From an uncultured Nitrosomonas sp. (GTDB lineage Bacteria; Pseudomonadota; Gammaproteobacteria; Burkholderiales; Nitrosomonadaceae), in the NCBI GenBank assembly GCA_964554625.1, contig CAZKPL010000001.1, forward strand, positions 10,876 through 74,875: DNA of 64,000 nucleotides. Reading direction: 5' to 3'. Made by a program: the position numbers and the translations under genes. The notes beneath the pieces are model-generated. The model was not told where the DNA came from. It searched no databases and was given only the letters and a program-made list of their open reading frames with translations. Positions 568 through 43,702 of the stretch are shown here, in pieces. Numbering within the stretch: position 1 is the first letter of the stretch; each line of letters begins with the position of its first letter.

Positions 568-2460
568 TCACAATTCAACCTGTGTTCCCAGCTCAATTAC
601 ACGGTTAGCTGGGATCTTGAACAGTGTCATGGCGCTAGAGGCATTGCGAGCCATCGCAATAAAAAGCTTCCCACGCCACGGCATCATACCCGGAAGATCA
701 GTGGGGATAAGGGTTTCGCGGCTGAGAAAGAAGGAGGTCTCAAGCATATTGAACTTCACTCCTAGCGATTCACATTGAGCCAGCGTTGCTGGAACATCGG
801 GTTCATCCTTGTAACCGAAATGGAAGAGCGCACGATAGAAGCCGTTTCCCAGCGAGGTCATTTCGGTGCGTTCATTCACAGGTATAAACGGAACATCAGC
901 AGTGACCACCGTCAGCAGCACTACTTGTTCATGCAGCACCTTGTTATGCGCCAGGTTATGAAGCAGGGCATGAGGCACACCAGTGGATCGGGTAGTCAAG
1001 AAGACTGCTGTGCCCGGCACTTTGATCGGTGGATGCTTTGCGATATTGGTAACGAAAAAATCAATATCGATTGCATCAGCCTGAAGACGTTGAATCAGAA
1101 CGTTTCGTCCTTTCTTCCAAGTGACCAGTAAGGTAAAGATAGCTGTTGCGATGAGCAGCGGGAACCAGCCACCGTGAATCACTTTCATGAGATTGGCGCT
1201 GACAAAGGCCAGGTCAATCACGAGGAAAACGGCGATGATTGCCGCTGCTGCTGCCCAATGCCAGCGCCACAGGCCATAAATCACAAAGAAGACCAATAGC
1301 GTATCAATGGCCATGGTAGCGGTTACGGCTATGCCATAGGCTGCCGCCAGATTACTGGAGGAACCAAACCCCACTACCAGCGCCACCACTCCCAACATTA
1401 GCAGCCAGTTCACAAACGGGATGTAGATCTGCCCCACTGCGCGCTCCGAAGTGTGCAGCATCTGCATCCGGGGAATATAACCAAGCTGGATAGCCTGCCG
1501 GGTGACCGAGAAGGCGCCTGTGATCACTGCTTGCGAAGCAATGACCGTTGCCGCTGTGGCAAGGGCAATTATGGGATAGAGCGCCCATGAGGGAGCCATC
1601 AGATAGAATGGATTGCGCGCTGCCATTGGATCACTGAGCAGCAACGCTCCTTGGCCAAAATAATTTAGCAGCAACGCCGGCCAGACAAATCCAAACCAGG
1701 CAAACTGGATCGGCCGCCGGCCAAAATGGCCCATGTCAGTATAAAGCGCCTCAGCCCCTGTGATCGCTAGCACCACAGTGCCCAGCACCAGAAATCCAAA
1801 CCACCCATGATTTAGCAGTAGGTCGATACCATAGACCGGATTTATTGCCTTGAACACAAGAGGGTGCTGGATGATGTTGATTACCCCCAGGAGCGCCAAT
1901 ACCAGAAACCAACCTGCCATGATGGGACCAAACAGCCTCCCCACCCCGGCAGTGCCGCGCGGCTGAAACAGAAACAATAACACCAAAACAGCCAGCGCCA
2001 GAGGAATAACCCAAGACTCGAGTGCCGGAGCCGTAACCGCTATCCCTTCCACAGCGCTAAGTACCGAGATGGCCGGAGTAATCATGCCATCTCCATAAAA
2101 GAGCGCCGCGCCAAACAATCCAAGTGAAGCCAAGAGCCAGCGTAGCCGTGCATTGTCTTTCTCTATCCGCTGCGTCAGGGCAATCAGCGCCATGATGCCG
2201 CCTTCTCCCTTGTTGTCAGCGCGCATCATGAAAAGCACATACTTGAGTGACACCACAATAGTCAGCGCCCAGCAGACCAGCGAGAGAACACCCAGGATGT
2301 TTTCTGGCTCCGGTGAAAGGGCATGCGCGCCATTGAAAGCCTCCTTCATGGCATAGAGGGGGCTGGTGCCAATGTCGCCGTAGACGACGCCTATTGCTCC
2401 CACCATGAGCGGTAGCATGATATTTTTGCTGGAAAGCTGAGGGGGTTGGGATATTGTCAT
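568..2460 (-). CDS. kup: KUP-family potassium uptake transporter
   Basis: 630 aa ORF. N-terminal GAIGVVYGDIGTSPLYAMKE signature, about 12 hydrophobic segments, and the typical cytoplasmic C-terminal domain. Confidence 0.95.
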   Translation of the reverse strand: MTISQPPQLSSKNIMLPLMVGAIGVVYGDIGTSPLYAMKEAFNGAHALSPEPENILGVLSLVCWALTIVVSLKYVLFMMRADNKGEGGIMALIALTQRIEKDNARLRWLLASLGLFGAALFYGDGMITPAISVLSAVEGIAVTAPALESWVIPLALAVLVLLFLFQPRGTAGVGRLFGPIMAGWFLVLALLGVINIIQHPLVFKAINPVYGIDLLLNHGWFGFLVLGTVVLAITGAEALYTDMGHFGRRPIQFAWFGFVWPALLLNYFGQGALLLSDPMAARNPFYLMAPSWALYPIIALATAATVIASQAVITGAFSVTRQAIQLGYIPRMQMLHTSERAVGQIYIPFVNWLLMLGVVALVVGFGSSSNLAAAYGIAVTATMAIDTLLVFFVIYGLWRWHWAAAAAIIAVFLVIDLAFVSANLMKVIHGGWFPLLIATAIFTLLVTWKKGRNVLIQRLQADAIDIDFFVTNIAKHPPIKVPGTAVFLTTRSTGVPHALLHNLAHNKVLHEQVVLLTVVTADVPFIPVNERTEMTSLGNGFYRALFHFGYKDEPDVPATLAQCESLGVKFNMLETSFFLSRETLIPTDLPGMMPWRGKLFIAMARNASSAMTLFKIPANRVIELGTQVEL

Positions 2461-2898
2461 GATATGAGAAATTGGGCGGGCAATGTATTTGCCAGTCTAT
2501 ACCAATTAATTGAAGATTTTTGAAATAGTGTGATGCGACTTGAATTTAACTTTATTCAGTTCGATATCCACCTTTGGCTTTACTCTCTTTTGTAAAGAAA
2601 CAGCCTATGGAGTCCGTGCCCAGTCACAATCAGTGCCCGTCAACCTCAGGTATGATACGCCCTGCATGCGTCGACAACAGGGTGTTAACCAGATGGGGCC
2701 ACGAAGATGAAGGGCAGCAACTCCTGCTTTCTCTGAATTTCAGCTTTAACAGGCTGTTGAAAAACTACCTGCATTGCCGCTGTGGTGTTAAAAACAGGCT
2801 CAGAATGCTCATTTATTGGGTACAAGCTCCGTTTTTTCGCCTGTTTTTGCCTTGCATCGGCTGCCTCGAATACGTTTTTCAACGGCCAGTTAACCGTC

Positions 2899-3177
2899 CT
2901 ATTTCTTGGCAACTGCGCTCTTGAAAGTTGCGCCGGCAGTGAATTTTGGTACAGTTGTTGCAGCGATGGAAAGCTTCTCGCCTGTCTTGGGGTTCTTGCC
3001 TTCACGGGCAGCACGCTGGGCTATTTTAAACGAACCGAAACCGGGTAGTGATATATCCTCACCATTGGCAATAGTTTCAACAATGGTATCCAGCACTGCA
3101 TTCACGGCCCGTCCTGCATCGGCTTTGGTTAAATTGGTGCGAACGGCAATTTGTTCAATCAGTTCTGTCTTGTTCAT
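2899..3177 (-). CDS. hupB: HU family DNA-binding protein
   Basis: 92 aa, MNKTELIEQIA...GFGSFKIAQRAAREGKNPKTGEKLSIAATTVPKFTAG. Classic HU/IHF fold signature. Confidence 0.95.
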   Translation of the reverse strand: MNKTELIEQIAVRTNLTKADAGRAVNAVLDTIVETIANGEDISLPGFGSFKIAQRAAREGKNPKTGEKLSIAATTVPKFTAGATFKSAVAKK

Positions 3178-3400
3178 GCTGAGAGTGCTCCTGTTAATTG
3201 AGAAACGCGCAGTATAACCGTTTGGATTTTATTTTCATCATGAAACTGATGATAAAGCCCTCATCGAAATTCTTTTATGGAATCAGATCGGCAGTTGCTG
3301 GCAATGGATTTGCCATCACTCCACTCTCTCAGGAATTGGAGTCTCCGATAAACCCGGAACGATTCAACAAATCATTGTTATTCGCTAAATGAGTGTTTTA

Positions 3401-3421
3401 TACTGAACAACTCATCATGTA
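3401..3421 (+). promoter_or_regulatory. Degenerate SOS(LexA)-box-like sequence upstream of the umuD-like relic
   Basis: TACTGAACAACTCATCATGTA versus consensus TACTG-N10-CAGTA. The left half is perfect; the right half has one inserted base. Confidence 0.2.
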
Positions 3422-3436
3422 CTCAAAGTACCTGTC

Positions 3437-3793
3437 ATGACAACCGTCATTTCATTCGCTTCTTCTGGCCTATCAATGCTGCCTTATCTACAGCAAGTTG
3501 AGATTGATTCTGTTGTCGTGTGCATGCTACCCCCATTACCGTATCGCATTCCCGCCAATTTTTCCTTGCCTGCGGACGAAGATGCCGAGAAAGGCTTGAA
3601 TCTTGATACTTATCTGGTGCGCAATAAAGCGGCAACGCATTTCTTTCGTGAAGCTGGGGATTTCATGGCTATCTGCGCGAAATTCTCGCGGATAGCCGAT
3701 ATGGCGAACGGGCGCCGGTCAGCGATGCTGCCGCATTGGCGACAGGTATCGCGCGCTGATGCCAAAGTTTCATTTGTTGACCCGGTAGATTGA
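3437..3793 (+). pseudogene. umuD/LexA-like S24 peptidase relic (N-terminal half only, catalytic Ser replaced)
   Basis: IPANFSLPADEDAEKGLNLDTYLVRNKAATHFFREAGDFM aligns with UmuD [37 protein letters not shown]. The nucleophile Ser is Phe here. Family similarity stops after this point, and no Lys-containing C-terminal half is present. Confidence 0.55.
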
Positions 3794-3798
3794 CGATC

Positions 3799-5010
3799 AT
3801 GGCAGCCCTGCCGATCTGCTCGCTCGCGATGATTGTGCGCACACTCGAGGGAGGTGGAATGCAGCGCATCGTTCTACTGTTGGCTGAAGCGTTTGCGAAG
3901 ACCGGCATTCAGGTCGAGGTCCTGACGGGCCATGACGCCGGAACGATCTCCAAGCTGCCGCCAGGTGTGAGCATTCGATGTCTGCCTCGCAGCAATGTGC
4001 TCTCCAGCGACCTTGCATTGCTCAAGGCGCGTCCTCACGATGCGCTCCGACTATTGCCCCTTCTGACGCCCCTGAAGCCGGACATGTTCCGGCGCCTCCC
4101 TGCGCTTATAGAATATCTGCGTACTGCGAGGCCCAACGCTATTCTAGCAGCAGGAACACAGTCCAATCTTGCGGCAATCATCGCACGCGCCGCCGCCGGC
4201 ATCCCTGCCCGGCTGGTAGTCAGCGAGCACAATACGCTGTCAGTCGTGGCGCACCGTGGCCACGGCGTGTTTCGCCGGGCCTACCCTGGACTCGTCCGGC
4301 GCTTCTACCGGGAAGCCGACGCGATCGCTGCCGTATCCCGCGGCGTAGCGCAGGATCTGGCGCAGGCAGCGGCTCTTCCCGAGGAACGGATTACGCTGAT
4401 CTATAACCCTGTCGATACTGAAGCGATTGTCCATGCCGGTGAAATGCCGGCCGAGCATCCCTGGCTCACTGACCGCTCTCGTCCAATTATTCTCGGCGTC
4501 GGTCGCCTGCACCGCCAGAAGGATTTCCCCACGCTTATTCGTGCCTTTGCCATCGCGCGCAAGGAACGTGATCTGCGGCTGGCTATTCTGGGTGAGGGCG
4601 GCGAACGCAAGAAGCTCGAGATGCTTTGCCACCAACTCGGCGTACAAGACGCTATTCTTATGCCTGGCTTCGTCGACAACCCTTTCGCCTGGATGAGTCG
4701 CGCCTCGCTATTTGTCTTGTCGTCGGCATGGGAGGGCTTTGCGCTAGTGCTGACGGAAGCGTTGGCGAGCGGATGCCCCGTGATCAGTACCGATTGTCCG
4801 AGCGGCCCGCGCGAGATCCTGCAGGACGGCGCCTACGGCCCGCTGGTACCGATCGGAGATCCTGAAGCAATGGCGAACGCGATACTTACAACCCTAGCGG
4901 CTCCTCCGGACGCGGCACGCTTACGGGCACGCGCTGCCGAGTTTTCGGTCGACGCCACCGTCGCAGGCTATCGCAGACTGCTGGAAGATGCGACAGTCGC
5001 TGCCAAGTAA
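3799..5010 (+). CDS. GT4-family glycosyltransferase (GC-rich, probably horizontally acquired)
   Basis: ORF 3790-5010. TLEGGGMQRIVLLLAEAF N-terminal glycine motif, and a C-terminal GT-B part: GRLHRQKDF, LFVLSSAWEGFALVLTEALASGCPVISTDCPSGPREIL. Start ambiguous between TTG 3790, ATG 3799 and ATG 3829. Confidence 0.85.
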   Translation: MAALPICSLAMIVRTLEGGGMQRIVLLLAEAFAKTGIQVEVLTGHDAGTISKLPPGVSIRCLPRSNVLSSDLALLKARPHDALRLLPLLTPLKPDMFRRLPALIEYLRTARPNAILAAGTQSNLAAIIARAAAGIPARLVVSEHNTLSVVAHRGHGVFRRAYPGLVRRFYREADAIAAVSRGVAQDLAQAAALPEERITLIYNPVDTEAIVHAGEMPAEHPWLTDRSRPIILGVGRLHRQKDFPTLIRAFAIARKERDLRLAILGEGGERKKLEMLCHQLGVQDAILMPGFVDNPFAWMSRASLFVLSSAWEGFALVLTEALASGCPVISTDCPSGPREILQDGAYGPLVPIGDPEAMANAILTTLAAPPDAARLRARAAEFSVDATVAGYRRLLEDATVAAK

Positions 5011-5241
5011 ATCAAAATTACTCCATTATTAACATTGAGACTATAGAACAACCTTATTTCCCCCTCTTTTCCCTGGTCATTTTGAGATCATTCCATCCAT
5101 CAGATTTATCTCAAGGCAAGCAAGAGCGTGTGAGCCCGGTTCATGGCTGATCAAACCGAAGCAATATAATGGGTACGGTCACGGATCATAATAGAGAGCG
5201 ACAGCGAAGACCAGCAATCAACGTCTATGGCCTTCACCCAC

Positions 5242-36073: not shown

Positions 36074-36367
36074 TTATAATGAATCATGATCTTTTTTCTC
36101 TTGCCACGTTATATACAAAAAAATACCCACAATGATTGCAACGGGAAAAATCACATAATAACCAAGCGCATAGCTTGCATCCGCATCCTGCCCAGCTGGT
36201 AGAGGGCTGCTCATAATTTTATAGCCATGGAATACCGCTACAAAAAATACACCCACCAACCCTGCTATTCGACGATTGATTAAAATCCGGCCCGCTATCA
36301 GGTTAAGTCCATGGATGGCAAAGTATCCAAGGAAATAAATAGCCGCATAAAAAATTAGAGCACCCAT
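36074..36367 (-). CDS. Hypothetical small membrane protein
   Basis: 97 aa with three hydrophobic helices. No recognisable motif. Confidence 0.5.
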   Translation of the reverse strand: MGALIFYAAIYFLGYFAIHGLNLIAGRILINRRIAGLVGVFFVAVFHGYKIMSSPLPAGQDADASYALGYYVIFPVAIIVGIFLYITWQEKKDHDSL

Positions 36368-36960: not shown

Positions 36961-38169
36961 ATGAATGAAAATCATGATTACATAAAAGCTGATGACAGCG
37001 AGGCTCACAGCAAGATAGAACTCATCACCGAACTGCAAGCACATCGGATAGAATTAGAAACTCAAAACCGCAAGCTTAGGGATATGCAACAGCAATTGGA
37101 AGAAATGCGCAGTCACTATGCCGATCTCTATGAGAATGCTCCCGTAGGTTATCTTACGCTGAATAAAGCCGGGAACATTCTGGCAATCAATCTGACCGGA
37201 TCTGCCCTCCTCGGCAAGAAGCGCGCCTCCATTTTGAATAAATCTTTCTTAAGCTACATTATTCACGATGACAATTACAGGTTTCTTAACCACCTGCAGC
37301 AAACCTTTAATTCCTCCCATAACATTGTCACTGAGCTAAGAATCAAAGGAACTTCCAATAAGGTAATCCACATACGCATGGAAAGTTTGGTCACGAAAGA
37401 TACCGACACTTGCCGCACAGTAATGACCAATATTACCCCTGTTAAAGAAAAGAAATACCTCGACCAAGAATTGCTGAATGGAAGCCGCCGACTGATGCAG
37501 AACCTGTTCAAAATGCAGGAAGAAGAACGGCGCTTTCTTGCGCGAGAACTGCATGATGAATTAGGCCAATGGCTTACCGCCATTCACGCAGAAACGGAAA
37601 CGATCGCTTATTTCTCCGATCAAGATTCCACCACCCACACCAGCGCTCAAGCCATTAAACGATGCGTAAAAAAAATGCACGAAGTAATGCGCGATATGCT
37701 GCGCCAATTACGTCCTACGCTATTAGACACACTCGGGCTGGAAGACGCTTTACTTGAATTAAGAGAACAGTGGATCACACACAATCCCCATATTACCCTC
37801 AAACTCAAGTTCGAAGGCTCTCTGGATAAACTCAATGAACACACCAATATCACCATATTTCGCATTATTCAGGAAGCGCTCAATAATGTCCGCAATCATG
37901 CGCAAGCCACCCGGGTTCTCATTCGTTTGAATCGTAAAACTGGCGCAACCGCCGCAGAGGATGTCTTGTCGCTCAGCGTGAGCGACAATGGCAAGGGTTA
38001 CAATACCGATCAAACACCTAAAGGGCTGGGACTGCTAGGAATACGTGAACGGGCCATCGCCTCAGGCGGCAAATTTTTTGTTCGTAGCATTCCCAATCAT
38101 GGAACACAAATTCATGTCAAATTGCCACTTGACTCCTCAAACAGAAGGAGAAAGACGGACAACCTTTAA
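36961..38169 (+). CDS. Cytoplasmic PAS sensor histidine kinase, NarX/HisKA_3 class
   Basis: 402 aa with no TM segment. N-terminal coiled coil ELQAHRIELETQNRKLRDMQQQLEE feeds a PAS box LYENAPVGYLTLNKAGNILAINLTGSALLG. HisKA_3 H-box RFLARELHDELGQ. HATPase_c N and G boxes (EALNNVRNHA, DNGKGY, GLGLLGIRER). Confidence 0.9.
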   Translation: MNENHDYIKADDSEAHSKIELITELQAHRIELETQNRKLRDMQQQLEEMRSHYADLYENAPVGYLTLNKAGNILAINLTGSALLGKKRASILNKSFLSYIIHDDNYRFLNHLQQTFNSSHNIVTELRIKGTSNKVIHIRMESLVTKDTDTCRTVMTNITPVKEKKYLDQELLNGSRRLMQNLFKMQEEERRFLARELHDELGQWLTAIHAETETIAYFSDQDSTTHTSAQAIKRCVKKMHEVMRDMLRQLRPTLLDTLGLEDALLELREQWITHNPHITLKLKFEGSLDKLNEHTNITIFRIIQEALNNVRNHAQATRVLIRLNRKTGATAAEDVLSLSVSDNGKGYNTDQTPKGLGLLGIRERAIASGGKFFVRSIPNHGTQIHVKLPLDSSNRRRKTDNL

Positions 38170-38328
38170 CAAACAAGCTAAACGAATCAATCAAAGTGAT
38201 GTCAGTGACATGATCCTCTGCGGCATGCGTTGGTTTTGCGTTCCAAGACTCTAATTTTGGTTATCCTGGGAAAGAATCATCCACCTCACAAACATATCAC
38301 TTCCCGCCACCTATTTAATGATGCAATT

Positions 38329-38341
38329 AAGGAATTTCCTT
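38329..38341. promoter_or_regulatory. Perfect 6-1-6 palindrome AAGGAA-T-TTCCTT upstream of the LuxR-type regulator gene
   Basis: Read directly. It lies 180 nt upstream of the GTG start at 38522. A near-copy, AAAGAATTTCCCT, occurs at 39315-39327. Confidence 0.25.
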
Positions 38342-38521
38342 AGATCAAAATAAGCTCTACACTTATTCTATTACTTCGCCCAATGCCTCAGAATATATTG
38401 CAATGATTCAATTAAGAGTACTCGCAATGAGAAATACAGTGGCTCCGTTTAACCAAGCTCAACAGTAATACTGTTTAAAATTCGCGTTAGTTCTCACTGA
38501 AACAGCAGGAGGGTTCGAATT

Positions 38522-39178
38522 GTGAGACAAAAGCCAGTTACGGTGCTACTCATCGATGACCATCCGGTAGTACGCAATGGGTATCGCCGTCTACTTGAAA
38601 GCACCTCGGATATTCATGTCTTAGCCGATGCTGATAATGGAGAAACCGGCTGTAGCCTTTATCAAGAATATATGCCCGATGTGACCATTATTGATCTGAA
38701 TCTGGACAAACAAGGCATTGATGGCCTGGAAACCATTCATCGCATCAAAACAAAAAATCCGGCTGCGAATATTCTGGTATTCAGCATGCACAGCAATGAA
38801 ATCATGGTCCAGCGCGCGTTAAAGATGGGCGCAACAGGGTACATCACCAAGCAAAGCAACCTCGAGCAATTGCTAAAAGCAGTCCGCCAGGTGAGCCAGG
38901 GACGCGTGTATATTGATCCGGAATTGGCTTCAAATTTACTTACCGACAAAGTGCTCGGCAAATCCTCCGGAAATCCTTTGCATGTTCTTTCCAAGCGCGA
39001 ATTTCAGCTGTTTAAATTGCTGGCGGAGGGGAATTCAGTGGCACAAATTGCGGAAATGATTTCTATCAGCCCTAAGACTGTTGGCGTCCACCAGGCAAGC
39101 ATCATGAAGAAATTAAAATTACAGAACACCTCTCAGCTTGTGCGCCTCGCCATCAATTGCAAGGTTATTCAAGCGTAG
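38522..39178 (+). CDS. NarL/FixJ (LuxR-type HTH) response regulator
   Basis: 218 aa. GTG start 9 nt after AGGAGG. VLLIDDHPVVRNGY, IIDLNL, a receiver Lys region, and C-terminal LSKREFQLFKLLAEGNSVAQIAEMISISPKTVGVHQASIMKKL. Confidence 0.9.
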   Translation: MRQKPVTVLLIDDHPVVRNGYRRLLESTSDIHVLADADNGETGCSLYQEYMPDVTIIDLNLDKQGIDGLETIHRIKTKNPAANILVFSMHSNEIMVQRALKMGATGYITKQSNLEQLLKAVRQVSQGRVYIDPELASNLLTDKVLGKSSGNPLHVLSKREFQLFKLLAEGNSVAQIAEMISISPKTVGVHQASIMKKLKLQNTSQLVRLAINCKVIQA

Positions 39179-39314
39179 CATTTATTTAATCTGCAGCATC
39201 TCACAACTTCAGGCTGCAACCAGTTTGCGCGCTTTTCATCAACTCGCTTTCTTGCCACAAATAAAAAACGACAGTTTGTCCGCAACTGAACTTGAGTGCT
39301 TTCAATTCATTTTT

Positions 39315-39327
39315 AAAGAATTTCCCT
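39315..39327. promoter_or_regulatory. GAATTTCC-core half-palindromic site upstream of the repeat-protein gene
   Basis: AAAGAATTTCCCT lies 129 nt upstream of the ATG at 39456. It shares the GAATTTCC core with 38329-38341. Confidence 0.2.
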
Positions 39328-39455
39328 ATATAAAATTAGAGCCTTTGCTTATTCCTTTATTTTAGGCGCTTCATAAAATATGAGACACCTAACTTAAACA
39401 TTCGTTTTAGTGTGGTGAAATCAGGATTAGTCAACTTTTATCAAGGAGAACTAAA

Positions 39456-40454
39456 ATGAATCAATTCAGCAAAAAAATCATCGCTGCAAGCATCGTGTTT
39501 GCTTTTGGGGTAGCAGGTAATGCTTTGGCCAATCCAAGTATCACTGAGGGAGATACCAATCCTGCCGGTAGTGCAGATAATAGCGGCTCAACGGCCATAG
39601 ATAACAATGTGAATAAAACCGCTACCGCCAATAATGGTCAAACCGGTCCGGGCACGATCGCGAATGAGTATGGAACTGCAACCGATAGCTCCAATAACTC
39701 GGATAACTCCAATCACTCTGATAACTCTAATCACTCCGATAACAGCGCTAACAATTCTGTTAACGATAGCAACAATCCCGACAGCTCTGTCAACAACAGC
39801 AACAATACCGCCGATAGCAACAATCCCAACAGCTCTACCAACGACAGCAACAACACTGCCGATAGCGGCAATGATAACAGCTCTGCAAGCGCCAGCGCAC
39901 AAGGCTCAGCAGCAGCTAACGGCGCCAGCACTGCATCGGTAGACAACAGCGATAACAGCGATAATAGCGATAACAGCGATAACAGCCTCGCAGACGCCAG
40001 CGCGCAAGGCTCAGCAGCAGCTAACAATGGCGGCACTGCCACTGCATCGACTGATAACACCAATAACAGCGATAACAGCACCACAACCGCAAATGGCACA
40101 GGATCGGCAGCTGCCAATGGTGGCACTGCAACCTCCAATTATAGCGATAGCAGCGATCACAGCTCCACGACTGCGAGTGGTGCAGGAACGGCAGCCTCCA
40201 ACCATGGCGACGCAACCGCCACCTACTCAGTCAATAATTCAACACTGGAAGGCTCGGTTACCGGTGCGGGAGTCTCCACTGCTTTGGGTGATGCAGATAA
40301 CAGCAGCGCTAATACTATCACCGCCAGCAATAGCATAGACAATGCCTTCAATGGCGCTGCAGGCATCAACCAAGCCGTTCAGAATCACGGCGCCAATGCC
40401 TTGGCGCAACAGCAAGTGTCTTTCCAAGGCAACGTGAATGTCAACCCTCAATAA
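39456..40454 (+). CDS. Secreted Asn/Ser/Asp/Ala/Thr/Gly low-complexity repeat protein (candidate fibre or major subunit)
   Basis: 332 aa. AAGGAG RBS. Signal peptide KKIIAASIVFAFGVAGNALA-NPS. DNS/NHS/NNS tracts and four G(S/T)AA(A/S)N..G.(T)A(T) modules. C-terminal IDNAFNGAAGINQAVQNHGANALAQQQVSFQGNVNV. Almost no basic or large hydrophobic residues after the signal peptide. Confidence 0.85.
   Translation: MNQFSKKIIAASIVFAFGVAGNALANPSITEGDTNPAGSADNSGSTAIDNNVNKTATANNGQTGPGTIANEYGTATDSSNNSDNSNHSDNSNHSDNSANNSVNDSNNPDSSVNNSNNTADSNNPNSSTNDSNNTADSGNDNSSASASAQGSAAANGASTASVDNSDNSDNSDNSDNSLADASAQGSAAANNGGTATASTDNTNNSDNSTTTANGTGSAAANGGTATSNYSDSSDHSSTTASGAGTAASNHGDATATYSVNNSTLEGSVTGAGVSTALGDADNSSANTITASNSIDNAFNGAAGINQAVQNHGANALAQQQVSFQGNVNVNPQ
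39702..39737 (+). repeat. 18-nt in-frame tandem repeat x2 (DNSNHS)
   Basis: gataactccaatcactct / gataactctaatcactcc, with 2 differences. Confidence 0.9.
39768..39863 (+). repeat. 48-nt in-frame tandem repeat x2 (SNNPDSSVNNSNNTAD / SNNPNSSTNDSNNTAD)
   Basis: Two adjacent 48-nt units differing at 6 positions, by my alignment. Confidence 0.9.
39891..40080 (+). repeat. Direct repeat with 105-nt period (ASAQGSAAAN...DNSDNS module)
   Basis: gccagcgcacaaggctcagcagcagctaac at 39891 recurs as gccagcgcgcaaggctcagcagcagctaac at 39996. The downstream parts have diverged. Confidence 0.8.
39942..39986 (+). repeat. 9-nt in-frame tandem repeat x5 (DNS)5
   Basis: gacaacagc gataacagc gataatagc gataacagc gataacagc. 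Confidence 0.95.
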
Positions 40455-40495
40455 CTAGAGTTGTAAGCAGCATTACAGTGCTTTAGTGAGAGAGA

Positions 40496-40529
40496 GGATG
40501 CCGGTGAACAGCAACCGTCGCCGGCATCC
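40496..40529 (+). promoter_or_regulatory. Intercistronic stem-loop after the repeat-protein gene (candidate attenuator or mRNA-stabilising hairpin)
   Basis: GGATGCCGG(TG)-loop-(CG)CCGGCATCC. 9 perfect bp, extendable to 11 with one G-U. No T-tract follows. It lies 42 nt after the stop and 31 nt before the next start. Confidence 0.45.
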
Positions 40530-40559
40530 TGAAAGAAATGAACGAAGGGGGTTATTAAG

Positions 40560-40922
40560 ATGGTTTCATTTATAAAAAGCAGCCTGCTTCTTCTGTTTGT
40601 TTTGACATTGCCTATTCATGCAGCCAAGGCATCTTCCAGCCAATCTGACGATGCATTACCTTTTTCATTGGCTGAAGCCGTGTCCGCTGATGAACTTGAA
40701 GAGGCACGAGGCCGGGAAGGCATTGATATCACCACGCTAAATAACATGAATGTGCAAGCTACCTTAACGGGCAATGTAGCAAACAACAGCCTTACTGGAA
40801 CGAACATTATCGATCATGGCGCATTTGCTGGCTCTGGCGGCATGTTTTCCGTGATTCAAAATAGCGGCAACAACGTGATTATTCAGGATTCCACTATCGT
40901 GAATGTAACCATAGTCCCCTAA
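40560..40922 (+). CDS. Small secreted protein with a C-terminal VIQNSGNNVIIQ module (candidate minor subunit or nucleator)
   Basis: 120 aa. Signal peptide LLLLFVLTLPIHAAKA, then SADELEEARGREG, then NIIDHGAFAGSGGMFSVIQNSGNNVIIQDSTIVNVTIVP. Confidence 0.75.
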   Translation: MVSFIKSSLLLLFVLTLPIHAAKASSSQSDDALPFSLAEAVSADELEEARGREGIDITTLNNMNVQATLTGNVANNSLTGTNIIDHGAFAGSGGMFSVIQNSGNNVIIQDSTIVNVTIVP

Positions 40923-40936
40923 TACCGATATTTTAA

Positions 40937-41671
40937 ATGCTCATTCAAATATTCAATCCCGATATGAAACCTCTCTTCGCCCGCTGCGTTGCACTTATTC
41001 TATCCGCATTTTGCAGCGCCGCTGGCGCTGGTTCACTTGACCTGAATGGCATCGCAGGCGGAGGAAACTACAATGTCTCAGTAAAGAGTTTCGCGGAAAT
41101 GAAGTTCAGTACTGTTTATAAACAACAGTATGATTTCAGCTGTGGTTCGGCAGCATTAGCGAGTCTGCTTACTTTTCATTATGGCGACGGCGTGAATGAG
41201 CAAAGTGTATTCATGGAGATGTTTCAACATGGCGAGCAGGAGAAGATCAAGAAGCTGGGCTTCTCCTTACTGGATATGAAAAAGTATCTGGAAAGGCGAG
41301 GCTACCGGTCCGATGGGTTCAAGATCAGTTTAGATCAGCTCGTGGCCGCTAACAGTCCTGCCATTACCATTATCAACGCAAATGGCTATTTACATTTCGT
41401 GATTATCAAAGGCATTACTGCGCAGCGTGTTTTGGTGGGTGATCCAGCTAAAGGTGTCCATATTGTCCCGCGCGACGAATTTGAAGCAATGTGGGAAAAG
41501 CGCATCCTGTTTTTAATCCATGCGGATCAAGGCATCGGCACGGGAAATTTTCAGGATCAGAAGGAGTGGTCCGCCCGCCTGGCGCCGCTGGGGGATGCCA
41601 TTGATCGAAGCAGTCTGGCTGAATACCATGTTTTGATACGCGGGCAGGTGCCGGGTCCTTTTGATTTCTAA
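40937..41671 (+). CDS. Periplasmic C39-family cysteine peptidase (FapD-like)
   Basis: 244 aa. Signal peptide KPLFARCVALILSAFCSAAGA. Oxyanion Gln and nucleophile Cys in YKQQYDFSCGSAALASLL. GFSLLDMKKYL. His in NGYLHFVIIKG. Asp in VLVGDPAKG. No ABC transporter domain is attached. Confidence 0.85.
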   Translation: MLIQIFNPDMKPLFARCVALILSAFCSAAGAGSLDLNGIAGGGNYNVSVKSFAEMKFSTVYKQQYDFSCGSAALASLLTFHYGDGVNEQSVFMEMFQHGEQEKIKKLGFSLLDMKKYLERRGYRSDGFKISLDQLVAANSPAITIINANGYLHFVIIKGITAQRVLVGDPAKGVHIVPRDEFEAMWEKRILFLIHADQGIGTGNFQDQKEWSARLAPLGDAIDRSSLAEYHVLIRGQVPGPFDF

Positions 41672-41691
41672 TTTATTGCTGGATATTAAAC

Positions 41692-42195
41692 ATGAACACT
41701 TATAAATTAGACTTTCCCCAGAAAAACTCCAAGCGCTTATCTCTATTCATCGCTCTCGTATGCCTGATCATTGCCTGTCACGCATCTGCAGACGAATCAC
41801 CCACCAGATCTGAATCTGACTCTATTGATGTCTATGACAACTGGCCCCGGGCGACTGATGGTGAACTAGCGCAACAAAGAGGCGGGTTTATGCTCCCCAA
41901 TGGAGTAACGATAGATTTCAGCTTTGAAAGAATTATTTCATTGAATGGCGTGGAAACCTTTTCTTCCCTCTTGCAATTCCCCGAAAATGGCTTGGTATTG
42001 CAAAATGGCAGCCACAATCTGGCATCAGATTTAGCCGTCTCAGGTTTAGGTCATGTCATTCAAAATAATTTAGATAATCAAGTAATCAAGACTATCAATG
42101 AAATTAACATTGAGATCGGTAACCTGCAGAATATTGGGTTACATAATAGCCATGGTCATGGCAGCATGAATATGATCTTACCCGTTCTACACTAA
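41692..42195 (+). CDS. Small secreted protein with a double-glycine-like motif and VIQNNLDNQVIK module (FapE-position protein)
   Basis: 167 aa. Signal peptide LSLFIALVCLIIACHASA, TDGELAQQRGG-F, then SDLAVSGLGHVIQNNLDNQVIKTINEINIEI. Confidence 0.75.
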   Translation: MNTYKLDFPQKNSKRLSLFIALVCLIIACHASADESPTRSESDSIDVYDNWPRATDGELAQQRGGFMLPNGVTIDFSFERIISLNGVETFSSLLQFPENGLVLQNGSHNLASDLAVSGLGHVIQNNLDNQVIKTINEINIEIGNLQNIGLHNSHGHGSMNMILPVLH

Positions 42196-42397
42196 TCATC
42201 TTTAAGTTGTTAGATACCCTCAAGCGGATATAAAATCTTTCCGGCAAGGCTGCATGCATAGCAAAAAATTTTCGTTATAAGCATGCTCTCCTCAAAATAC
42301 AGAGCAGAACTTGCTCTAATCTTCTGGTTGCAGCATTCTCATCGGGTTTTATAATGACTTCCCTCATAGGCAAGAAGCACTGTCAACTTAATCAAAA

Positions 42398-43702
42398 ATG
42401 AATAAAAAATATTGTCACACGCTTTGTTTTTGGAATGGAATAACCCGATGCTTTGTTTTTATCGCATGTCTTTTTTTCATAAATGGAAGCTATGCTGAAA
42501 CAAGCAAACCTGCAGATTCATTAGAGCACTACCGGCAGCTTCTTGTTGAGCAGGAGAAAAAATTTGAAAGACAGCGCCAATTACTTGAAGAACAAGGCAA
42601 GGAACTGGAACGCTTAAGAAAACACCTTGATGCACTATCCAAACAATCTCCTGCTCCATCAAATCAGCCAAAGCCATCAGCACCAACCAATACCGCAGCC
42701 AAGCAAAAAGAAGACACACCAAGAGCGTCGCCGAATCAGATACCGTCGGGACCAGTCGGCCAGGCTCCTCCTGAGTCAAAAGAACCAGCGAGACCTCCAG
42801 AAATGCCCAGGCTAAGTGAAACGGTAGGGGGTGTTTTAACCAAAAAAGGCAACATTATTGTTGAACCGGCCATGGCATATTCTTATTCTGACAACAACCG
42901 CGTATTTCTGGATGCTTTTACTTTTATACCGGCAATTGCGGTCGGTCTCATCGATATCCGTGATATTACCCGGCACAGTCTTTTTGCCAGCCTTGGGTTA
43001 CGCTATGGCGCAACTAATCGTCTGGAATTGGAAGCCAGGGTTCCTTATGTATACCGTGCCGATATCCAGCGTTCCCGTCCTGTTAGCATCGGCTCCAGCA
43101 TTAATGAAACATTCGACGCAAGCGGAAATAATATCGGTGATGTCGAGCTGACAGCCCGTTATCAGCTCACCGATGGTTCGGGCGGCTGGCCTATTTTGGT
43201 GGGTAATATGGTCACAACGATACCCACAGGAACCAGTCCCTTTGATATCAAATTTGTTGAATCACAAGAAGTACCCGGCGCCATGTTCCCAACAGAAGCT
43301 CCGACAGGATCAGGTTTTTTCAGTTTCCAGCCAAGTGTTACCGCACTTTATCCAACCGATCCAGCCGTATTCTTCAGCAACATCCAATACACCTATACCA
43401 TGGAAACTGATGGGAATGCAGGCAAGATCGACCCGGGCGACGCAGTAGGCATGACTTTTGGTATGGGATTTAACATTAATGAACGATCCTCCTTTAACCT
43501 GGGATACTCTCATAGACATTTTTTTAATACACGGGTAAATGGCGATAAAATCGGCGGTTCTGCACTGGATATTGGACAAGTGTTATTGGGTTACGCATTC
43601 AGATATTCCCAACGAGTCAATTTTAATTTATCCATCGGAATCGGCGCGACCGACAATGCACAAGATGCAACCATTACCTTCAGGGCACCGATAACCTTTT
43701 AA
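42398..43702 (+). CDS. Outer-membrane beta-barrel protein with N-terminal coiled coil and Pro-rich linker (FapF-like architecture)
   Basis: 434 aa. Signal peptide to SYA-ETS. Heptad-rich LEHYRQLLVEQEKKFERQRQLLEEQGKELERLRKHLDAL. Linker of about 55 aa rich in P/S/A/Q. Then alternating-polarity strands ending ITFRAPITF, with a terminal aromatic residue. Confidence 0.85.
   Translation: MNKKYCHTLCFWNGITRCFVFIACLFFINGSYAETSKPADSLEHYRQLLVEQEKKFERQRQLLEEQGKELERLRKHLDALSKQSPAPSNQPKPSAPTNTAAKQKEDTPRASPNQIPSGPVGQAPPESKEPARPPEMPRLSETVGGVLTKKGNIIVEPAMAYSYSDNNRVFLDAFTFIPAIAVGLIDIRDITRHSLFASLGLRYGATNRLELEARVPYVYRADIQRSRPVSIGSSINETFDASGNNIGDVELTARYQLTDGSGGWPILVGNMVTTIPTGTSPFDIKFVESQEVPGAMFPTEAPTGSGFFSFQPSVTALYPTDPAVFFSNIQYTYTMETDGNAGKIDPGDAVGMTFGMGFNINERSSFNLGYSHRHFFNTRVNGDKIGGSALDIGQVLLGYAFRYSQRVNFNLSIGIGATDNAQDATITFRAPITF

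Follow-up and report, generated by a model that had tools for sequence, protein, structure and literature searches.

A C39 peptidase and FapF-type barrel cassette in Nitrosomonas: a probable fibre or matrix export system related to Fap and Fil

Gene content, conservation and machinery of the cassette

The stretch of DNA analysed here (64,000 nucleotides; hereafter, the window) comes from contig CAZKPL010000001.1 of an uncultured Nitrosomonas sp. and carries a five-gene cassette encoding three predicted secreted proteins (p332, p120 and p167), a C39 cysteine peptidase and an outer-membrane protein (OMP). The closest relative based on the OMP is Nitrosomonas sp. Nm132 (91% OMP identity), in line with an earlier note on this DNA, made from the letters alone, that took the host to be an ammonia oxidiser. 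A total of seven co-oriented + strand genes lie within 36961-43702, i.e., a histidine kinase gene, a response regulator gene and the cassette, with intergenic gaps of 352, 277, 105, 14, 20 and 202 bp in that order. The list of open reading frames (ORFs) reproduced all coordinates and lengths of the earlier note, including those of the five cassette genes at 39456-43702 behind the kinase and regulator, and the gene calls were identical in public assemblies of the same organism. The cassette and its features are listed below.

39456-43702, + strand: cassette of five genes, encoding p332, p120, the C39 peptidase, p167 and the OMP
39456..40454, + strand: p332, 332 amino acids (aa), Sec-signal protein with Asp/Asn/Ser tracts and a single C-terminal asparagine/glutamine-rich (N/Q) module
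40230..40451, + strand: C-terminal module of p332 (residues 259-332, FNGAAGINQAVQNHGANALAQQQVSFQGNVNVNPQ), candidate FapB-type repeat unit
40560..40922, + strand: p120, 120 aa, with a Sec signal, a leader-like L-x3-RG(REG) motif and a core of ~66 aa ending in one N/Q module
40689..40721, + strand: leader motif of p120 (D44-G54, DELEEARGREG), a variant of the double-glycine-type motif
40800..40919, + strand: C-terminal module of p120 (residues 81-120, GAFAGSGGMFSVIQNSGNNVIIQDSTIVNVTIVP), 27.4 bits against the P0414-repeat hidden Markov model (HMM) described below
40937..41671, + strand: periplasmic C39 cysteine peptidase (FapD/FilB-like), 244 aa, Pfam Peptidase_C39 3e-19
41692..42195, + strand: p167, 167 aa, with a Sec signal, a double-glycine leader and a product of ~102 aa ending in the N/Q module VIQNNLDNQVIKTINEINIEI
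41842..41886, + strand: leader of p167 (W51-G65, WPRATDGELAQQRGG, followed by F), predicted site of C39 recognition and of cleavage after G65
42398..43702, + strand: FapF-type OMP, 434 aa, identified by NCBIfam FapF, FapF in the PDB, AlphaFold2 (AF2) and Foldseek
42812..42832, + strand: linker/barrel junction of the OMP (L139-G145, LSETVGG), possible third C39 site

Signal peptides were judged by a heuristic (basic segment, hydrophobic segment, small-residue sites). All five cassette products had a basic and then hydrophobic N-terminus with small-residue sites, as the earlier note had it, and the maximum 12-aa hydropathy of these N-termini was 2.3-3.4; by the same check the kinase and the regulator had no signal-like N-terminus.

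To profile the cassette across genomes, one genome per species was scanned with the OMP alignment, which yielded 80 loci, and their six-frame ORFs were clustered by local phmmer and BLAST. The five families were the only ones present almost everywhere (OMP in 80 loci, p167 in 73, C39 in 72, p120 in 69 and p332 in 63), with most absences due to truncated contigs, and no extra conserved gene was found in the cassette among the 80 loci; ORF clusters of middle frequency were antisense shadows of cassette genes and were discarded. The order p120, C39, p167 was invariant in about 75 species, the p167 gene being always next after the C39 gene, whereas the OMP gene, adjacent to the cassette, varied in position by lineage (downstream, upstream or on the opposite strand). 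Given that the cassette is kept in about 75 species in different genomic contexts, it represents more than a chance arrangement, and the earlier proposal of a separate, co-conserved family held. The hosts include Nitrosomonas (N. europaea, N. eutropha and many wastewater and soil Nitrosomonas), Methylobacter, Methylomonas, Methylomicrobium, Neptunomonas, Paraglaciecola, Psychromonas, Sulfuricella, Pseudoxanthomonas, Paucimonas, Salinisphaera, many Burkholderiales and a metagenome-assembled genome (MAG) of Nitrospinaceae.

The 244-aa protein belongs to the C39 peptidases (PF03412, 69.6 bits against a gathering cut-off of 22) and its N-terminus is signal-like. Its NCBIfam scores for FilB (126.7 bits) and FapD (126.3 bits, 1e-36) were nearly tied and both below cut-off, and the HMM of its family matched Pseudomonas FapD at 5e-54. 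In the PDB, its matches were domains of the PCAT1, ComA and LahT type. The catalytic residues Gln63, Cys69, His153 and Asp169, which the earlier note had described as an intact set, are kept in 72-75 of 75 family members.

The OMP matched NCBIfam FapF end to end (residues 24-434 on 8-420 of 420, E 2e-40, 138.9 bits) and the crystallised barrel of Pseudomonas FapF (PDB 5o65/5o67) at E 3e-25, with both PTG motifs aligned. The AF2 model comprised a signal helix, a long helix (41-81), a disordered Pro-rich linker (83-149) and a barrel of ~12 strands (153-434), thus the coiled coil, linker and barrel reported from the sequence were recovered. FapF was the top Foldseek match of the model (E 4.7e-18, template modelling score 0.76), followed by the COG4313 channel 4rl8. 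In the helix (42518-42640), Gln52, Gln59 and Gln66 are invariant at heptad spacing throughout the alignment of 12 homologues. Trimeric coiled coils can have such polar layers in their core; the pattern is compatible with one, though it is no proof. Taken at the superfamily level, sequence and model together identify the OMP as a true FapF homologue with a predicted coiled coil, linker and barrel.

The secreted proteins, their shared module and leader motifs

Pseudomonas FapE was matched by the HMM of the p167 family at 12.0 bits, a score reached by none of 484 composition-matched shuffles (best shuffle, 5.8), and hhalign aligned the two with 77.6% probability (E 1.9e-5) on DGELAQQRGGFMLPNGVTIDFSF versus DSELAELRGRFVMPGRIVSFGI. 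The NCBIfam FapE model matched 13 of 59 p167 family members, the best at 1.2e-5 and far below its 250-bit cut-off, and was the sole family matched by more than one p167 relative. Given these matches and the position of its gene between those of the FapD and FapF homologues, p167 is likely a distant FapE homologue. The last three genes had been noted before to follow the order FapD-FapE-FapF, and homology was now found for each of them. In some Burkholderiales MAGs without a p332-like gene, the FapE-like gene encodes 770-900 aa (L072:9334-11793; also L070, L076, L078 and L084), i.e., a signal peptide, a ~690-aa region rich in Pro, Ser, Ala and Glu that is apparently disordered, an LDQMRGGF leader and a 120-aa FapE-like C-terminus. 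The double-glycine (GG) motif is internal in this long protein, thus cleavage would release a large N-terminal fragment.

The three secreted proteins resemble each other at their C-termini. By hhalign, the p120 and p167 families matched at 97.4% (E 1e-11) across both the leader motif and the C-terminal module, and the p120 and p332 families at 94.7% (E 6e-8) across the C-terminal module (for example, GAFAGSGGMFSVIQNSGNNVIIQDSTIVNVTI in p120 and AFNGAAGINQAVQNHGANALAQQQVSFQGNVNV in p332), which is nearly invariant within the p332 family. By sequence, p332, p120 and p167 are paralogues via this N/Q module, which therefore is not private to the first two proteins as had been proposed; it is shared by all three and reaches the repeats of FapB through a bridging protein, P0414.

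P0414 (L088:6248-12503) was found by the p120 profile search and has 1500 aa with 18 tandem copies of the module at a period of about 72 aa. An HMM of this repeat matched p120 (27.4 bits; 0 of 425 shuffles as high), the C-terminus of p332 (13.9 bits; 0 of 490) and, in register, the three canonical FapB repeats (11.9, 4.0 and 2.8 bits; 0 of 452), while the best shuffle scored 6.6 bits. The FapB control was negative in the Pfam scan, so membership of FapBC (PF27129) was judged from precomputed Pfam marks: P0414 itself has a faint FapBC match and the product of the adjacent 556-aa gene a confident one. Based on the repeat HMM matches and these marks, the interpretation of the shared module as a remote FapB-type repeat, one per protein, is moderately supported. 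Within 8 kb of P0414, its contig encodes neither a C39 protein nor a FapF, and P0414 is followed closely by transposase genes of the IS110/IS630 type.

The N-terminal parts of p167 and p120 carry a second shared feature. Downstream of the Sec signal, 70 of the 73 p167 family members have L-x3-RGG and then Phe. Counted from the second Gly across these 70, P-12 is A/V/L in 67, P-11 S/T in 59, P-8 E in 50, P-7 L in 70 and P-4 L/M in 51, and P-3 R, P-2 G, P-1 G and P+1 F each occur in 70. The classical C39 double-glycine leader has the consensus LSxxELxxIxGG, and the p167 family profile fits it at every defined position. The sequence of FapE at the leader position is ELAELRGRF. In the p120 family, L-x3-RG was found in 64 of 70 members, 17 of them with L-x3-RGG (class A) and 45, including the window protein, with the less canonical RG-[R/M/K]-[E/G]-G (class B; ARGREG in the window), and what follows the motif varies very little in length (63-70 aa across the family). 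The motif was absent from all 57 p332 family members searched. The earlier note regarded p120 as simply a second fibre subunit, a view that is modified by the N-terminal L-x3-RG leader motif common to p120, p167 and FapE.

A comparable motif occurs in the channel. RLS[ED]TVGG-VLT[RK]KG is invariant in the close OMP family, and a search of residues 60-230 detected L-x4-GG in 59 of 82 OMP family members overall and L-x3-RGG (E-A-L-A-A-Q-R-G-G) in seven divergent members, apparently of Burkholderiales type, in whose genomes the same motif would thus be present on p120, p167 and the channel. In one gammaproteobacterial MAG (L048), a second system lies directly upstream of the cassette, that is, a pair of a FapF-like barrel and a C39 protein closer to FilB than to FapD (1656-5195). 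In front of this pair are encoded three small Sec-signal proteins (149, 92 and 125 aa), all with an L[ST]DxQMDxVSAG leader of the double-glycine type, suggesting that substrates with a Sec signal followed by a GG leader may be general to systems of a periplasmic C39 peptidase and a FapF-type barrel. Judging by these motifs, p167 would be cut behind its GG by the C39 enzyme, which may act on p120 and the channel linker as well. In Pseudomonas, the catalytic Cys of FapD is needed for secretion and its target 'remains unclear' (PMC5557850); FapE was the only protein with N-terminal processing, and the same work raised the hypothesis that FapF is cut close to its GG motifs (PMC5557850).

The largest of the three, p332, consists of 19% Asn, 18% Ser and 17% Ala with zero Cys. 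Just upstream of its C-terminal module it has about four imperfect units of 26-35 aa (AxGSAAANGGTAT...DNSDNS; 39873-40163), which are also visible as repeats in the coding DNA (D1-D4) and recur in the consensus of the family. Its tracts rich in Ser, Thr and Asn are possible sites of glycosylation. Its family was found in 57-63 of the 80 loci, with lengths of 70-690 aa and duplications in six loci. There was no Pfam or NCBIfam match to p332, and the 'YSIRK lipase' matches of its family were dismissed as low-complexity artefacts. We predict from its sequence that p332 is the main exported subunit.

The alignment of the p120 family has twelve invariant positions (L46, G51, G80, N82, G94, Q100, N101, G103, N105, V106, I108 and Q109). 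A profile search of 1.84 billion representatives returned 1293 clusters at E<=1e-3 and 835 at E<=1e-10, nearly all of 105-160 aa, labelled 'hypothetical' and without a Pfam domain, and the same profile had no match among the PDB sequences. One Nitrosomonas cluster of p120 homologues, P0323, carries the UniRef name 'Carbon storage regulator', which is almost certainly a misannotation given its signal peptide, and no similarity to CsrA was seen. The Pfam scan of p332, p120 and p167 returned nothing. The sequence features predict that p120 is a processed minor or nucleating subunit.

Neighbouring regulators and flanks

Upstream of the cassette lie the two genes of a potential two-component system.

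36961..38169, + strand: histidine kinase, 402 aa, PAS / HisKA_3 / HATPase_c (Pfam PAS 8e-10, HisKA_3 3e-12, HATPase_c 5e-12)
38522..39178, + strand: NarL/LuxR-type response regulator, 218 aa, REC and GerE (Pfam Response_reg 7e-27, GerE 5e-18)

The kinase has no hydrophobic segment and is thus soluble, and both it and the LuxR-type regulator are as described before; the regulator reached no equivalog cut-off of any NCBIfam model. The pair had also been called dedicated to the cassette, which did not hold up, as the linkage is not conserved and occurs in only about 5 of the 80 species loci besides the copies of the window locus itself (L001-L003, set aside in this count). The kinase/regulator pair adjoins the cassette in the window, L005, L007 and L060, and is located downstream of it in L067 and L024. 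These two genes are lineage-specific neighbours, next to the cassette in a few Nitrosomonas loci, and not part of the conserved cassette, with the kinase a possible regulator of it.

Other lineages have other regulators beside the cassette. An OmpR-type winged-helix protein is encoded nearby in 19 gammaproteobacterial loci (e.g., L050:9264-10142), an EAL/YkuI_C protein in 16 loci (a few kb off in the Methylobacter versions, e.g., L011:762-1967), and a VpsR and sigma-54 activator in 14 Burkholderiales loci (e.g., L078:10066-11406). A VpsR-domain sigma-54 enhancer-binding protein with the same domain set also flanks the canonical Pseudomonas fap operon (L085:9383-10708). The different regulator types indicate that regulation is lineage-specific, and these neighbours are of the kind that controls biofilm matrix.

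The locus is flanked by housekeeping genes on the other strand, i.e., the his operon upstream, and glycerol kinase, DAO oxidoreductase and GDPD genes downstream. An ORF of 97 aa with apparently three hydrophobic segments (36074-36367, - strand) separates the his operon from the kinase gene; gene calling in the public assembly includes it too (L001:1677-1970), and Pfam gave no match to it. Scans for tRNA genes and for Rfam families at the gathering threshold found none anywhere in the window (1-64000), thus no riboswitch or RNA element is involved.

Relationship to known systems, proposed mechanism and significance

We judge it likely that the five genes form a two-step Fap-type export and assembly system for extracellular fibres or matrix, as a distinct and widespread sister branch of Fap and Fil. 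The NCBIfam equivalog cut-offs (FapF 700, FapD 330, FapE 250, FilB 475 and FilC 630 bits) were used to place it, with a genuine Pseudomonas fapABCDEF locus (L085) as the positive control, whose six proteins scored 234-770 bits and passed all cut-offs (FapF 770 and FapD 424.8 bits, versus 138.9 and 126.3 bits in the window).

A canonical fapABCDEF operon that has diverged in sequence, its first two genes being FapB and FapC, would explain the same D-E-F order and homology, the N/Q-rich secreted proteins upstream and the remote relationship of the module to the FapB repeat. The scores are far from it, however, with FapD at 126 against 330 bits and FapF at 139 against 700 bits; the NCBIfam models of FapA, FapB, FapC and FapE matched no window protein, and precomputed Pfam FapBC left no mark on them. 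Moreover, there is no three-repeat subunit, the large subunit precedes the small one, p332 and p120 have no Cys and hence no CxxC, and no FapA-like gene was found at the locus with the NCBIfam FapA model, although genuine fap operons lack FapA more often than any other component (PMC3792158). FilB and FapD are equally distant from the C39 protein, and when Rouse et al. (2018) surveyed Fap systems, the orthologues of N. europaea and Glaciecola were entered as no more than HMM hits to FapD and FapF, and not as Fap systems. With no protein at a Fap cut-off, no FapA and no FapC, the cassette is a separate branch and not a fap operon, as was suspected in the earlier note from the lack of CxxC and of the three GVNVAAG-type repeats in the first two proteins and of a FapA-like gene; canonical membership was refuted by the NCBIfam tests and we consider it very improbable. 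Even less credence is due to membership in the Acinetobacter FilA-F pilus system, which gives Acinetobacter sp. Tol 5 a surface fibre of FilA (PMC11784438). The C39 protein does score marginally best against FilB, and the OMP also matches FilC (9e-11), but at 126.7 against 475 and 41.7 against 630 bits both fail the cut-offs, the OMP is far better matched by FapF (139 versus 42 bits) and no Fil model matches p332, p120 or p167. In L048, furthermore, the more FilB-like pair of C39 protein and OMP, with other small substrates, stands separately beside the cassette.

The main rival is the secretion of soluble, small, processed peptides of a bacteriocin-, toxin- or signal-like kind, in which products of ~65 aa from p120 and ~100 aa from p167 would leave through the barrel. 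GG leaders and C39 peptidases are a hallmark of bacteriocin and pheromone maturation, in keeping with the PCAT1, ComA and LahT-type matches, the products expected after processing are short and vary very little in length (63-70 aa for p120), and a two-component system adjoins the cassette in this lineage, though it is not conserved with it. Unlike fast-evolving bacteriocins, the mature parts show strong conservation between different proteobacterial classes, and no immunity or ABC-transporter gene is conserved nearby. The conserved module, rich in N/Q and free of Cys, resembles a repeat and is found in tandem arrays with a FapBC annotation, the two fibre systems Fap and Fil have the most similar machinery, and the linked regulators are of biofilm type, all of which makes peptide secretion improbable. 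The barrel might otherwise be a COG4313/MetA-type uptake channel for hydrophobic compounds with unrelated neighbours, since its homologues are named 'transporter', some with PF13557 Phenol_MetA_deg, and 4rl8 is the next structural match. We give this reading hardly any weight, because the OMP has the FapF-specific N-terminal coiled coil and linker along with the end-to-end FapF match, FapF is about 8 orders of magnitude better in E-value, the OMP gene is co-conserved with C39 and three secreted proteins in about 75 species despite rearrangements, and C39 partners are not reported for COG4313 channels (PMC6173800).

Several observations weigh against the fibre or matrix interpretation. Export, cleavage and fibres are, for every member of the family, predictions from sequence. 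The link to FapB depends on the single bridging protein P0414 and on modest scores; the repeat HMM did not match FapC, and when p120 and p332 were compared directly with FapA, FapB, FapC and FapE by HMM and hhalign, nothing was significant against composition-matched shuffles. Each subunit has one module versus three repeats in FapB and FapC, and most of p332 is hydrophilic low complexity that is not obviously amyloidogenic. At the putative cleavage sites, the window p167 has Gln and not a hydrophobic residue at P-4, and the window p120 reads RGREG instead of GG. The AF2 model of the OMP is of only moderate confidence (mean pLDDT, the per-residue confidence score, 58.8; barrel about 75), and that of the p120 monomer (pLDDT 46; a short helix at 43-52 with low confidence) is uninformative; the absence of a confident monomer fold would fit a protein that folds on assembly, without being evidence of this. 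Finally, promoter and terminator scans of the locus were at chance level, so an operon is proposed on the basis of gene spacing and orientation only.

Compared with Pseudomonas Fap, the cassette shares the C39 peptidase, a FapE-like protein, the FapF-type coiled coil, linker and 12-strand barrel, the D-E-F order, Sec-dependent substrates rich in Asn, Gln, Gly and Ala with a remotely FapB-like module and, in some lineages, the adjacent VpsR/sigma-54 regulator. It differs in lacking FapA, FapC and CxxC, in having one module per subunit in place of three repeats, in placing the large subunit first, in an extra FapE-like small paralogue (p120), in the canonical RGG leader of p167 versus RGR in FapE, and in its hosts, which are nitrifiers, methanotrophs, marine gammaproteobacteria and Burkholderiales. 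With Acinetobacter Fil it shares a periplasmic C39 protein, scoring equally against FilB and FapD, and a FapF-like OMP, but this OMP is much closer to FapF than to FilC and there are no relatives of FilA, FilD, FilE or FilF; the Fil product is a surface fibre, as the predicted product here would be. The C39 domains of ABC exporters (PCAT1, ComA and LahT) have the same fold and Gln/Cys/His/Asp set, and the p167 leader fits their LSxxELxxIxGG consensus. The enzyme here is instead a free-standing, Sec-exported periplasmic protein and not a cytoplasmic domain of an ABC transporter, and its substrates have a Sec signal before the GG leader and a predicted exit via an outer-membrane barrel. Curli (CsgA/B and CsgG) are alike in the proposed logic, i.e., Sec-exported N/Q-rich repeat subunits, their secretion in unfolded form by a dedicated outer-membrane channel and extracellular nucleation, but have no homology in channel, accessory proteins or subunits, and no peptidase.

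In the export and assembly system that we propose, Sec would take all five proteins over the inner membrane, as their N-termini suggest. The periplasmic C39 peptidase would then recognise the p167 leader (...TDGELAQQRGG/F, with the predicted cut at the slash), and probably also the related motif of p120 and LSETVGG in the OMP linker. By analogy with FapF, processing may license or open a trimeric coiled-coil/barrel channel, through which p332, p120 and p167 would leave, their N/Q modules possibly stacking between molecules into a fibre or matrix. Here, p332, leaderless like the unprocessed FapB and FapC, would make up the hydrophilic bulk, possibly in glycosylated form, and p120 and p167 would, after processing, serve as minor or nucleating components in the manner of FapE. 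Judging from adjacency, the pair of PAS kinase and NarL-type regulator probably controls expression in this Nitrosomonas lineage. Whether the product is a true amyloid is close to an even question, leaning slightly towards no; the hints of one at sequence level are the N/Q module, its tandem arrays in P0414 and the p120 monomer model with no confident fold. The broader proposal of a third widespread C39/FapF-dependent fibre class, with a single FapB-like module per subunit, with Sec and GG-leader substrates (FapE-type and possibly the channel linker) and with the microcolony matrix of nitrifiers and methanotrophs as its product, is possible but rather unlikely.

This kind of system, in which a periplasmic C39 peptidase and a FapF barrel export N/Q-rich subunits, is known; the FapD/FapF pairing in these genomes was catalogued before, and the homology of the machinery is ordinary once tested. 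The branch itself was not previously described, and new in it are its own p332/p120/p167 gene content, the single-module subunits and the explicit arrangement of a Sec signal and a GG leader. Literature searches on 'Fap-like' systems and on N. europaea biofilm transcriptomes returned nothing specific to the locus. The p120, p167 and p332 families have no Pfam or NCBIfam model, and defining them would improve the annotation of thousands of genomes (p120 profile clusters being counted at 50% identity). The microcolonies of ammonia oxidisers are exceptionally resistant to shear and detergent. In Fap biology, what FapD acts on and what it does is a recognised question (PMC5557850), and the cleaner canonical GG leader on the FapE-like p167, together with the motif recurring on p120 and the channel linker, provides a directly testable cleavage hypothesis that is transferable to Pseudomonas. 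The extracellular polymeric substances of granules of ammonia-oxidising bacteria contain amyloid-like glycoproteins whose genes were not identified (PMC6291783). The cassette thus offers candidate genes for the detergent-resistant, glycosylated, amyloid-like matrix of these bacteria, which is relevant to granulation, biofilm reactors and sludge settling.

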